From Eledone cirrhosa (lineage: Eukaryota), in assembly GCA_964016885.1 (NCBI GenBank), contig OZ024740.1, positions 399,962,001 through 400,026,000 on the forward strand: a DNA stretch of 64,000 bases, read 5' to 3'. The position numbers and the translations under genes were made by a program. The notes below the pieces were generated by a model, which saw only the letters and a program-made list of their open reading frames with translations, did no database searches and was not told the DNA's origin. Positions 2,658-32,817 of the stretch are shown one piece after another; position 1 is the stretch's first letter; each line of letters begins with the position of its first letter.

Positions 2658-3391
2658 ACCTGTGTGTTTGAGTGTGTGTTTGTGTGTACAGAGGGACACT
2701 GAGAGTGTAAAGGAGACAGCGGGAAGTGGGGGGTGAGAAACACAAACAAGTGAATTGTGATTAAATAGTGGAGATGTAGCGACCACTTGGGAGATTAAAA
2801 CGAGAAAATACTGCCGTCATTTGTCTGTCCGCAGATCAAGCCGTTTGATTTATGAGAGCTGGTCGACTTCATTGTTAATGACCAGACAGTGATAAAGGGT
2901 GAGATTATGAGCTTGCCAAACATCATAGAAAATGAAGTCCTTTCGTAAGTCTAAGGAGATAGAAACTGCCTATTGACCTGGGTTTAGAAATGACACAAGA
3001 CAGATAGCTGACTAATGAAAACCAATGATTTAGCTCATCGGTTTCATTTCAGGTTTACTTCTATCATTCTGTTTTTCTCATCTACCAACCTTTCATAATT
3101 ACTAGATTTCATCACCGCCATCTTTGTTGCGCTGTATTTCTATGTCGCTAAAATTTTGTGATTACTTCTTGTCCAACTGTGTTTCAGGATATTGAAACAT
3201 TAGCAGTTCTCATGCTGAAACTCCGATTGTCACGTATGATCAGCAATGTTGCTGCCATTTTCAAAACATTTTTTTAACCTACGCCTCACCCTCCCATATT
3301 AAACCCCCCCATAACCACCACACCATTCCCACTATTTGTCTTTCATTCCTTCCTTACTTTCTCTTCTCCACTCTAACTCTTTCCTCGCATA

Positions 3392-3960
3392 ATACATAAA
3401 CACATATACACTCACGTAAACACACATACACTCACATAAACATACATACACTCACATAAACACACACACTCACATAAACACACATACACTCGCATAAACA
3501 CACATACACTGACATAAACACACATACACTGACATAAACACACATACACTCACATAAACACACATACACTGACATAAACACACATACACTCATAAAAACA
3601 CACACACTCGCATAAACACACATACACTCGCATAAACACACATACACTGACATAAACACACATACACTCACATAAACACACATACATTCACATAAACACA
3701 CATACACTCACATAAACACACACGCACTCACATAAACACACATACACTCACATAAACACACATACACTTGCATAAATACATACACTCGCATAAACACACA
3801 TACACTCGCATAAACACATACACTCGCATAAACACACATACACTCACATAAACACACATACACTCACGTAAACACACATACACTGACATAAACACACATA
3901 CACTCACGTAAACACACATACATTCACATAAACACACATACACTCACATAAACACACATA
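3392..3960. repeat. 20-bp minisatellite (cacataaacacacatacact)n
   Basis: Visible 20-bp periodicity over about 570 bp. Confidence 0.95.
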
Positions 3961-4466
3961 TTCATATTCCTGCCCACTCCCCCTTCTTTTCTCTTTTTCT
4001 TACACACTCACATACACATATGGTACACATATTCACATATTATGCACACACATTTATTCTCTTTTAAGATCCCATGAGGTTTCTATTGCTAAACGTATTA
4101 TTGCCGTTGAAATTTCGTGTAAATTCGACCGGAAACTATTTGGAAATAATGTAGGAGATGGGATGAAAAACTGGGAACTAATATCAATAAATTTTAAAAG
4201 AAATAAAGCACAGTGATTATGAAAACAAATTTATTTCTTGCCCCTCGTGAAAACACTAAGGTCAACAGCCAAGTATATTACGGAAGAGGTGAGGTGAATC
4301 AATAAGATTTGTTTTTATTGTAAATGGCAGCGAAAATATTATTTTCCTTCATTTTATAGCAAGATTGAGAATGAAAAAATATAAAAATGAGAAACCAAAT
4401 AGGTTTGAGAGAGTTGTAAATAGGATATTGATAATCACAGGTCTATTCATTTTGCTTCGTTTTTTC

Positions 4467-28479: not shown

Positions 28480-29119
<640 letters not shown>

Positions 29120-29341
29120 TTCGTTTCTGAATTTGTTTAGCAAGATTTTTTATCTGAAATCGTGTGTTGAAACCGATATTGTTATACTTTGGGAGGGTCA
29201 TGTTGCCAATAAGAAACACACGCACCAGTTGCTTTCACTTAAATTTATTATATATTTATAAATTTATAAATTTACAAATCTACAAACTTATAAATTTCTG
29301 GTTGGTTGGTTGGTTCCACAACCAGATAGTTGTTTATATAT

Positions 29342-29386
29342 AGTCATAGTCCTTTCGTCACACACTCTGTGACCTCTTCAGTGACT
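29342..29386 (-). ncRNA. HHR-like motif in PLE copy 2, left arm
   Basis: agtca CTGAAGA g-gtcaca-gagtg-tgtgac GAAA ggac TA tgact. Confidence 0.65.
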
Positions 29387-29594
29387 GGGGATTCCTTTCT
29401 TTGTTTCTGTGCCTTTCCTTTCTTCTATCCTACGCCATTTTGTTTCTGTGTGTGTGTTGTGTGCTCAGTTTGCGCATGCGCCACATCCGGGTGTCTGTGT
29501 GTGTTTGTGTTCATTTATCTATTTGTTTATTTATTTATTTATTTATTGTTGGTTGGTTGTTTGTTCTATGTGTGTGTGTGTTTTCATTTTGTCC

Positions 29595-29980
29595 TTAATT
29601 GTAAGTTGTGATGTTGCTGTTCCACTCATATTTTCTATTTAATTTTGGTTTTAATTCTTTTATGCTTACTGCCTCTGTAATTTGCCTAAACATTGCGTCT
29701 TTTCTGTGTGTGGATTCTATTTTTATTTCTATGTTCTCTAATCTACCCCTGTGTTCTATCTTAGCATGTTGGTAGAGCACAGATGATTCTTTATTATCTT
29801 GGAGGTCTCGCCAGTGTTCATTTATTCGTTCCCCTATACTACGAGCTGTCTCACCTATGTACACTATATTTTTGTTTCTACATTGTCCTTCAGTACATCT
29901 TATGCTATACACTACATTTCTAGTTTTACAGTTAATATGGGGGCTTATTTTACAGGTTATACATTTCTTATCTATACATG
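29595..29980 (-). pseudogene. PLE Cys-rich linker plus GIY-YIG endonuclease
   Basis: CIDKKCITC..NCKTRNVVYSIRC..C..YIGETARSIGERINEH..H..H..ITEA..LN. Confidence 0.92.
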
Positions 29981-31023
29981 AGGGTTTTGGAACGGGTATG
30001 TCTTGCTAATAAGTGTTTTTACGGAGGTACCTGGTCTTTCTACTATCTTAATATTGAGATTATGTTTATTTATGGCCCTTCTAAATTTGTAGGCTAGTTC
30101 GCCTCTAGGGGTTGTATTGATGAACATTACACTCTGGTATTTATTGCTATCATACCATGAGTTTATTCTATTGGCCTTGTTCCTAGTTCTTTCTATTCTA
30201 TTCCAAAATTTGCTCCTATACAAGGGGCATGTCCCATTTATGTCATTATTTACCATTTTTTCCCATTTGGTTCTGGCTCCTTTATACACTCTGATTCTAT
30301 CTCTCTGATTGTAGCCAGAGAACTGCATACGGTGGATGAAGTGTTGTATGTGTCTCTCTAGTTCTTCGGGGTTGCACATGCGGGACACATTTCTCATCAC
30401 CCGTACCAAATCCGCAATCAGTATGTTGATTTTGGTATGGTCCGAAATGGCCGAGTTTCGGTGGATCAGATGTTTGGAAGTCATGGATTTGGTATAATGG
30501 GAATGGAGGATTTGTTTTTGGTTGTTAATGGTATCTAACCAGAGCTCTGTGTCTAGTACAGGTAATCGATGGTTGGGGTGTCTACTTGGGTAGTCTATAG
30601 TAACTCTAATGCTCTGGTGGATGGAGTTTGCTATTTGCTGGATGCTTTCCATTGTGTTTTTCTCTAGTTCCTGACTGTTCTTTAGTGGGCGTGTCTTAAC
30701 TACGATGTTTATATCATCTACGTAGCGGGAGTACATTATCAGGGTTAAGCTGTCTTCTAATTGTTCTTTAAGTTTTTGTTTAAGTCTACTGTCCCACCAT
30801 ACCATGAATAAGTTAGCTATGTCGCCTGCAATGCTAACACCAATGGCTGCTCCTTCCTCTTGGGCATATGTTTTGCCATTAAATTTGAACATATGTTCCT
30901 TAAGGGTTAATTTTATGCTGGCCCCTACCGCATGTGCAATCATTTTCTTCAGTTCATCGTGGTTTTCGGGTGTCCGTATGGCTCTGGTCCACCTGTTCCA
31001 TCTATCTGTATGGGTTTTCTTGG
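29972..31023 (-). pseudogene. PLE reverse transcriptase (N-truncated), frameshifted before the C-rich linker
   Basis: [41 protein letters not shown]. Confidence 0.92.
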
Positions 31024-31079
31024 CCAAGAAAACCCATAAAAACACTTATTAGCAAGACATACCCGTTCCAAAACCCTCA

Positions 31080-31463
31080 TGTATAGATAAGAAATGTATA
31101 ACCTGTAAAATAAGCCCCCATATTAACTGTAAAACTAGAAATGTAGTGTATAGCATAAGATGTACTGAAGGACAATGTAGAAACAAAAATATAGTGTACA
31201 TAGGTGAGACAGCTCGTAGTATAGGGGAACGAATAAATGAACACTGGCGAGACCTCCAAGATAATAAAGAATCATCTGTGCTCTACCAACATGCTAAGAT
31301 AGAACACAGGGGTAGATTAGAGAACATAGAAATAAAAATAGAATCCACACACAGAAAAGACGCAATGTTTAGGCAAATTACAGAGGCAGTAAGCATAAAA
31401 GAATTAAAACCAAAATTAAATAGAAAATATGAGTGGAACAGCAACATCACAACTTACAATTAA
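31080..31463 (+). pseudogene. Inverted duplicate of the linker and GIY-YIG endonuclease
   Basis: The ORF track gives the same 105-aa protein as 29595..29912. Confidence 0.92.
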
Positions 31464-31720
31464 GGACAAAATGAAAACACACACACACATAGAACAAACA
31501 ACTTACAATTAAGGACAAAATGAAAACACACACACACATAGAACAAACAACCAACCAACAATAAATAAATAAATAAATAAACTAATAGATAAATGAACAC
31601 AAACACACACAGACACCCGGATGTGGCGCATGCGCAAACTGAGCACACAACACACACACAGAAACAAAATGGCGTAGGATAGAAGAAAGGAAAGGCACAG
31701 AAACAAAGAAAGGAATCCCC

Positions 31721-31765
31721 AGTCACTGAAGAGGTCACAGAGTGTGTGACGAAAGGACTATGACT
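31721..31765 (+). ncRNA. HHR-like motif in PLE copy 2, right arm
   Basis: Same motif on the plus strand; stem I agtca/tgact. Confidence 0.65.
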
Positions 31766-31921
31766 ATATATAAACAACTATCTGGTTGTGGAACCAACCA
31801 ACCAACCAGAAATTTATAAGTTTGTAGATTTGTAAATGTATAAATTTATAAATATATAATAAATTGAAGTGAAAGCAACTGGTGCGTGTTTCTTATTGGC
31901 AACATGACCCTCCCAAAGTAT

Positions 31922-31957
<36 letters not shown>

Positions 31958-32107
31958 CATGTATATTACATTGTTTACTCTATTTTGACGAATCAACTAA
32001 CAACAAATATTGAAGCTGAAATGAAAACATAATGTTGCTTGTATTCTTACCAATGTCTGTTTCAACAACCTGGCGAAACAAATATATATATATATATATA
32101 TTTTTTA

Positions 32108-32298
32108 TTTATTTTATAGAAGGAGCTTCTACAGGACTAGTACTGTTTCATTCAGATGAAATCTTCCTGAAGATTTCATCTGAATGAAACAGTACTAGTC
32201 CTGTAGAAGCTCCTTCTATAAAATAAAAAAATTTACTCTGCCATGTATTGATTACCTTACTTACTGTGGTTATCCCCGACTCAACCCGGGACCTACGT
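32108..32298. mobile_element. Family B fold-back element: 120-bp palindrome centred on an HHR CTGAAGA box, plus tail
   Basis: Centre gaaatcttc-ct-gaagatttc; plus strand reads CTGAAGA tttcatctgaat GAAAC agtacta GTC ctgtag; the tail is homologous to the reverse complement of 41739-41820. Confidence 0.88.
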
Positions 32299-32307
32299 AT
32301 ATATATC

Positions 32308-32330
<23 letters not shown>

Positions 32331-32338
<8 letters not shown>

Positions 32339-32668
32339 TAATAAAAATAATGAATAAAAACAAAGAAACAGTTCCTTATATTAAAAAATTCATCATTTTA
32401 CGATCGTTTCTAGGATATATATTTTTGTGTTGGTATGTATATCATATAGATCTATGTAAAATTTGTACAAACTATCAGAGCGAATATACATACCTGCACA
32501 TATATATGTGTAGGTATGTATATTCCCTCTGATAGTTTGTACAAATTTTACATAGATCTATATGATATACATACCAACACAAAAATATATATCCTAGAAA
32601 CGATCGTAAAATGATGAATTTTTTAATATAAGGAACTGTTTCTTTGTTTTTATTCATTATTTTTATTA

Positions 32669-32674
<6 letters not shown>
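32331..32674. repeat. About 340-bp near-perfect palindrome flanked by (TA)n
   Basis: Arms differ at about two positions; the centre is a short TA run near 32503; mirror-image ORFs appear in the track. Confidence 0.95.
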
Positions 32675-32752
<78 letters not shown>

Positions 32753-32817
32753 GTGTGTATATGTGTATATGTGTGTATACATATATAAATACATACATAT
32801 ATATATATATGTATGTA

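Follow-up and report, generated by a model that had tools for sequence, protein, structure and literature searches.

A head-to-head Penelope-like insertion in Eledone cirrhosa with a palindrome at its inner junction, and a survey of the junctions of its family

In a 64-kb window of the 3.0-Gb Eledone cirrhosa assembly (C1:399962001-400026000, a stretch without N), a single repeat is present twice, with the copies inverted relative to each other, across positions 29116-31929 (blastn of 31024-32000 against 29051-31023), and a perfect palindrome lies where they meet. How did the two copies come to be joined? An earlier note on this DNA had read the place as a snap-back of the growing end, followed by a jump to a new template position. 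We conclude that the unit is a young Penelope-like insertion, two copies head to head in a TA repeat. For its family we favour two separately primed cDNAs over a single strand that copies itself, with self-copying possible at this locus.

The left copy has its sense strand on the minus strand and runs from 31026 down to 29116, the long terminus with its 60-nt tail. The right copy reads in the sense direction along the plus strand, from 31037 to the short terminus at 31929, and is the reverse complement of 30021-29176 (Table 1). As a ruler for the family we used a natural copy of 4064 nt, which represents one tandem period (L014 1718-5781, reverse strand). On this ruler, the left arm covers ref 4064 to 2154 and the right arm ref 3154/3159 to 4004. 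An (AT)n stretch adjoins both outer ends and would mask any target-site duplication, and the final ATAT of the tail is attributable to either target or element. The coordinates of the earlier note were accurate within two bases, but the arm ends at 31929 rather than 31927 and measures 893 bp rather than about 850 bp; its counterpart in the left copy measures 846 bp.

Table 1. Features of the insertion and its flanks (positions of the window).
Feature	Position	Strand	Basis or remark
Target flank on the left, a long and imperfect (TA)n microsatellite	28800..29115	.	Read from sequence; TA-rich repeat families begin at about 28275
Tail, the last 57-60 nt of the left copy (ref 4005-4064)	29116..29175	-	Ends ..CAGAAACGAAATAT against (AT)n; none in right arm
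Segment of the left copy that recurs, inverted, in the right arm; GIY-YIG and 3' non-coding region	29176..30021	-	Alignment, Pfam
Part present in the left copy only, C-terminal half of the putative reverse transcriptase	30022..31008	-	Colinear with ref 3158-2171 of the natural 4064-nt unit
Perfect 15+15 palindrome	31009..31038	.	Centre 31023/31024; tatgggttttcttgg followed by ccaagaaaacccata
Right arm, inverted 5'-truncated copy (ref 3159-4004), tail-less	31037..31929	+	Ends ..AACAATAT against (AT)n
Open frame with GIY-YIG in the right arm	31053..31463	+	Identical to 29595-30005(-)
Perfect 49-bp tandem duplication, right arm only	31449..31546	+	Copies 31449-31497 and 31498-31546
Hammerhead-like words (CTGAAGAG, GTCAC..GTGAC, GAAA)	31719..31765	+	By eye; mirror at about 29342-29388(-)
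Right target flank, short (AT)n	31930..31953	.	Read from sequence

Other inverted repeats lie to the right of the insertion. Positions 32298-32709 form a spacer-less palindrome of 206+206 nt, 99% complementary, from an abundant fold-back, MITE-like family with at least 137 matches among the 40 of 930 candidates that were scored; some are whole palindromes and some are halves of about 211 nt. A second hairpin repeat, with arms of about 60 nt and a 2-nt spacer, occupies 32100-32230 between two TA runs and gave only sub-threshold matches to microRNA models (mir-1805, with 38.7 bits where the gathering score is 64). We took the microRNA-model matches that Rfam returned on these neighbouring palindromes as hairpin look-alikes.

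The Penelope identity proposed in the earlier note is borne out by a putative reverse transcriptase fragment together with GIY-YIG, by tandem and inverted partial copies, by a one-sided tail and by the (AT)n target. The ORF fragment at 29972-31045(-) matched RVT_1 at E 7.3e-5 with 23 bits, under the Pfam cut-off of 29.6, and YVDD is present in it by eye. Among longer ORFs of the family, RVT_1 matched one of 865 aa (L050) at E 8.9e-4, and one of 1026 aa (L027) was without a match. The nearest Atlas clusters, a lead only, bear RVT_1, HTH_animal, DUF8422 and GIY-YIG. The endonuclease domain itself (PF01541) passes its cut-off of 22.6 on 29595-30005(-), with 23.8 bits and E 5.6e-5, and the right arm carries an identical open frame, so the copied part includes GIY-YIG as the earlier note had it. 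This domain is C-terminal to the reverse transcriptase, and in L014 the reverse transcriptase frame continues straight into it. In the translations, a C-x4-C-x2-C linker, PSCIDKKCITCK, precedes it.

In both arms of the window unit, the reverse transcriptase and GIY-YIG frames are separated by a 1-nt deletion. The 20-mer with this frameshift also occurs in L027 (twice), L028 and L029, and in public contigs roughly half of the depth over the family has the extra G. The template was thus already of a frameshifted lineage. Of the open frames seen in the family, the longest (L027:3956-7033(-), the 1026-aa ORF) ends at the frameshift of the window copy and has a long asparagine/threonine-rich low-complexity insert in its N-terminal part. 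The hammerhead-like motif of the earlier note fared less well: its words are visible at 31726-31754, but the Rfam scan of 28500-32800 at E<=1 found no hammerhead, and the stretch folds no better than shuffles (z -0.76).

At the inner junction, the palindrome reported in the earlier note is present exactly where it was placed. Positions 31009-31026 are family sequence, which includes a natural TGGCCA, and 31027-31038 are the turn-back copy. Past the turning point the family continues ...CTTGG/CCA, with CCATTGAGG in 18 of 25 copies. Since the family already reads TGGCCA at the turn, only the 12 nt at 31027-31038 are certainly new turn-back sequence. The turn-back is followed by a gap of about 986 nt in the element sequence; the TA at 31037-31038, which belongs to both the palindrome and the start of the right arm, bridges it. 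The TA microhomology and the arm start equivalent to about 30021 are as the earlier note described, since blastn places 31037 opposite 30021 with the TA overlapping. For the end of the cDNA, folding gave nothing above shuffles. For the proposed snap-back and template jump, the turn-back and the TA-bridged gap stood, but copying along the same strand is unsupported as stated, as the arm stops at ref 4004.

One way to obtain this junction would be for a single cDNA, primed at the long site and extended to ref 2154-2157, to turn back and copy its own strand. The 986 nt would then have been skipped in a jump guided by TA, or lost later from an unstable palindrome by a TA-microhomology deletion. 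The turn-back itself suits this explanation, and so does the fact that the whole right arm is contained in the longer tailed arm. Arkhipova et al. (2013, PMC3846280), in the part that treats such palindromes, interpret them as self-priming. Geometry stands against it: a polymerase on its own strand cannot form a spacer-less hairpin, and here the turn works only with GGCC as the loop.

The junction is unique in the genome. Its 24-nt palindrome core occurs a single time in 3.0 Gb at <=1 mismatch, and a 251-nt junction query has a full-length match at its own locus only. More than 30 other copies, 95-99% identical, match the query only up to 31026-31027, so the family extends beyond the truncation point of the window copy.

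Long reads are known to contain fold-back chimeras, and the palindrome and inverted arm could in principle be absent from the DNA of the animal. The search of sequencing runs gave no independent support for the junction, as every run contained <=0.23 of 13 sampled words. Among the Logan contig pieces listed for 30700-31350, none spans 31009-31038, although these are low-coverage short-read contigs and cannot show absence. The same low-coverage short contigs gave a very high summed family depth over this interval with a dip in the bin 31008-31029, and their loose ends near the junction are the canonical family continuation on both sides. However, the same head-to-head plan recurs at 48 junctions in 55 loci on many contigs. 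A read that was read twice would also give a symmetric and identical mirror, whereas these arms are unequal (1.9 vs 0.9 kb), differ at 5 places and end in different flanks at the two proper termini of the family. We consider an artefact of reads or assembly very improbable.

The earlier note had judged by eye that the arms differ at a handful of sites and that the event is recent, and the alignment agrees: the first 466 bp are 100% identical, and in the other 434 columns there are 3 substitutions and a GT indel of 2 bp, to which the 49-bp tandem duplication of the right arm is added. The insertion is young. Each of the four small differences occurs in one arm alone and in none of 20 other loci. 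Two substitutions, the 2-bp indel and the 49-bp duplication are private to the right arm, and one substitution to the left. A copy of a copy might show more private changes, as the right arm does, but this imbalance is not significant. We rejected the arm differences as proof of two source RNAs, because private changes and a variable repeat fit later mutation equally well.

The duplication at 31449-31546 falls in a 3' non-coding region with a variable number of repeats. This region is 161 nt long in the left arm against 210 nt in the right, and nine related copies have 238-263 nt. Repeats of 38-49 nt vary in number in the young subfamily (L011-L014, L027-L029), where the region spans 161-263 nt. 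The repeat allele is usually common to both arms of a unit (246/246 in L013, 260/262 in L027), unlike in the window (161/210) and in the L014 tandem (161/244).

For the family survey, we sampled the window and 54 further loci, 55 loci in all, from this abundant and young family. Tandem joints from ref 4064 to ref 1 occur in L013, L014, L017, L018, L024 and L030. The family has two discrete termini, ..AACAATAT against (AT)n at ref 4004 and ..GAAACGAAATAT against (AT)n at ref 4064, and both sites read AATAT/CG wherever the sequence continues internally. Every outer terminus seen in the family adjoins (AT)n. By our own reading of the alignments, 34 of the 37 complete head-to-head units have one long and one short end; the exceptions are one short+short unit (L024), one long+long unit (L055), whose host flanks are also inverted repeats, and one odd unit (L018). 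At about 12 loci we saw one copy only and no inverted partner. The head-to-head architecture is the norm for this Penelope-like family.

Arm lengths bear directly on self-copying. Of 33 scorable units, 22 have a tailed arm at least as long as its partner, and 11 have a longer tail-less arm (L012, L013, L019, L026, L031, L039, L045, L046b, L051, L059 and L063a). In L013, the tail-less arm is full length, and the two arms agree at all 1171 compared sites and have 3 private variants in common. Tail-less arms that are longer than their partners cannot be copies of the tailed arm, so they arise without a tailed template. Therefore, tail-less arms are cDNAs in their own right that start at ref 4004, where the right arm of the window ends. 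Self-copying leaves unexplained why the window arm would stop exactly at ref 4004, 60 nt before the end of its template, and this is the same terminus as in the 11 of 33 tail-less arms that cannot be self-copies. The arms within a unit are nearly identical, often with common private variants, which fits one RNA or one source.

The earlier note had suggested a survey of the family for micro-hairpins. We examined 48 head-to-head junctions (19 + 29) in the 55 loci. Most of them have a few nucleotides of arm overlap (0-14 nt) or a few filler bases. The longer fillers are built from repeats of adjacent sequence: 33 nt in L013, 61 nt in L018 and 35 nt in L021. Such overlaps and locally copied fillers are the mark of repeated pairing and extension of ends. 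Palindromes of at least 10 nt with a spacer of 0-2 nt are present at 4 of the 48 junctions: the window (15), L048 (10), L055 (29) and L047 (137). When we made artificial head-to-head joins with random breakpoints, palindromes of at least 10 nt appeared in 8 of 2000, and 7 of those 8 came from near-coincident breakpoints. Junction palindromes are thus enriched about twenty-fold, yet they occur at a minority of junctions. Together with the unique core, this control excludes a chance origin of the 15+15 palindrome. The turning points of the window and of L048 lie on natural 6-nt palindromes, TGGCCA and GGTACC.

The claim that the window junction is unusually informative is unsupported as stated. 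Palindromes at inverted PLE junctions have already been read as self-priming (PMC3846280, in the part on such junctions), and three further junctions of the 48 carry palindromes of 10-137 nt. L047 is an exact mirror at ref 3365/3367, with 137-nt arms and a 1-nt spacer. Exact or near mirrors at L047, L055 and L032/L043 mean that full fold-backs do occur, and the jump-free mirror of L047 and the near-mirrors of L032/L043 and L053 are what a strand that copies itself would leave. L051 pairs a 6-nt turn-back with a 53-nt skip, also in line with self-copying; its 6-nt length is within chance.

Two of these loci point to a different origin. L032:7331-8823 and L043:994-2390 have unrelated flanks and the same near-mirror junction, ..tttatGGAacggataaatg.., so that at least some mirror units seem to be copied whole. 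If a parent locus had been the source of the window unit as well, through retrotransposition of a hairpin transcript or through DNA duplication, its junction would say nothing about this insertion. With a core found nowhere else in the genome at <=1 mismatch and a 251-nt query that matches in full only at home, we think it most improbable here.

Inner breakpoints also cluster along the ruler. One cluster lies at ref 3717-3741 (..ctacgccatttt) and holds L051, L053 and L055, as well as L036, L046 and L054; a second, at ref 3349-3367, holds L032, L043 and L047. The template RNA may have favoured 5' ends at these two places.

Since the right arm ends exactly at the second start site of reverse transcription (ref 4004), we favour two target-primed, 5'-truncated cDNAs, made from both cut strands and joined at their growing ends. 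We advance this tentatively, at somewhat less than an even chance. The enzyme of the element would nick both strands of the TA repeat, and each 3'-OH would prime reverse transcription at one of two internal ..AAUAU/CG.. sites, ref 4064 and ref 4004. The left cDNA would stop at ref 2154-2157. Its self-complementary TGGCCA end could then turn back on itself, or anneal to another end of this kind, after which either the reverse transcriptase of the element or a host repair polymerase would extend it by 12 nt. The TA of the new ..CCCATA-3' end would pair with that of the ..TTTTTA-3' end of the right cDNA, synthesis of which would have ended at ref 3159, and each end would be filled in on the other. 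The explanation by a single strand that turns back and copies itself is possible at this locus, and we hold it to be somewhat less likely.

Two independent choices of start site do not predict the near-obligate pairing of a long with a short end, so two separately primed cDNAs need an extra assumption, such as one RNA for both strands. In this more specific form, one RNA would be copied twice, once per nicked strand and always from different start sites, with the ends welded, sometimes via a turn-back at self-complementary hexamers. We regard that specific form as rather unlikely.

Much of what the window insertion displays is already published for PLEs: inverted 5'-truncated copies, one-sided tails, TA targets, priming on both strands and junction palindromes interpreted as self-priming. 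The parts of PMC8557442 and PMC3846280 that deal with structure describe inverted 5'-truncated copies, tails at one end only and (TA)n targets, and the latter describes palindromes at an inverted junction. Like the EN+ PLEs as portrayed in those parts, our family has a single putative reverse transcriptase followed by GIY-YIG at the C-terminus. Its copies are heavily 5'-truncated and form partial tandems, an inverted truncated copy abuts their 5' end, only one end is extended, the target is (TA)n, and palindromes occur at junctions. Unlike them, its tail is 60 nt against the 30-40 nt quoted there, Rfam models detect no hammerhead in the window copy, and the subfamily of this copy has the 1-nt frameshift between reverse transcriptase and endonuclease. 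In the portion of Craig et al. (2021, PMC8557442) on these groups, the Neptune/Nematis traits are a bias towards insertion into (TA)n and, ahead of GIY-YIG, a CX2-5CxxC linker. Judged by its sequence, our family appears to resemble this type in its C-x4-C-x2-C linker and in outer termini that all abut (AT)n.

Biochemical work on the green-anole element PAc (Poseidon) is closest to the mechanism that we favour. Its protein cleaves and extends both target strands in vitro (Frangieh et al. 2024, PMC11167929), and we infer the same for the window family. In PAc, reverse transcription starts at two adjacent internal sites whose spacing is the genomic tail, and the targets are AT-rich (PMC11167929); our family is like it in both respects. 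The start sites of PAc have no reported homology to the cut DNA (PMC11167929), whereas here both read AAUAU beside (AT)n. That paper covers priming and not 5' joining, and it describes the PLE integration steps after first-strand synthesis as still unvalidated (PMC11167929). To go by the sequence, the (AT)n end of the target could pair with the RNA at the AAUAU start sites of the window family.

Two other systems offer parallels for the joining step. In the twin priming of human L1, cDNAs from both target strands are joined by short homology and the 5' part becomes inverted; Zingler et al. in 2005 reportedly described microhomology joining of L1 5' ends. In twin priming, the two L1 cDNAs copy different parts of one RNA, and the halves are not known to repeat each other. 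Our insertion is like L1 in having two target-strand cDNAs joined at a short homology, on the reading that we favour, and unlike it in that both arms carry the 3' end. End joining by polymerase theta makes snap-back templated insertions, and the window junction is similar: a short reverse-complement copy beside a 3' end, then a join at 2-nt homology. Our literature search found no paper that pairs a Penelope retrotransposon with a snap-back template, so the word may be new for PLEs; the phenomenon itself is already known.

As a single locus, the window insertion carries little weight, for it has the usual mirror build of its family and junction palindromes are already in print. Its value is that of a clean, dated example in a genome with a young, abundant family. 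What this study adds are the family counts, which bear on the late steps of integration: one long and one short end in 34/37 units, a longer tail-less arm in 11/33, and turn-backs of at least 10 nt in 4/48 junctions, two of them on natural 6-nt palindromes. If one RNA is indeed copied twice, from two start sites, the junction and the family survey would be a fossil of how Penelope-like elements finish integration. In that case a census of this very young and very abundant family could show how 5' joining, a step of PLE transposition still to be solved, takes place.
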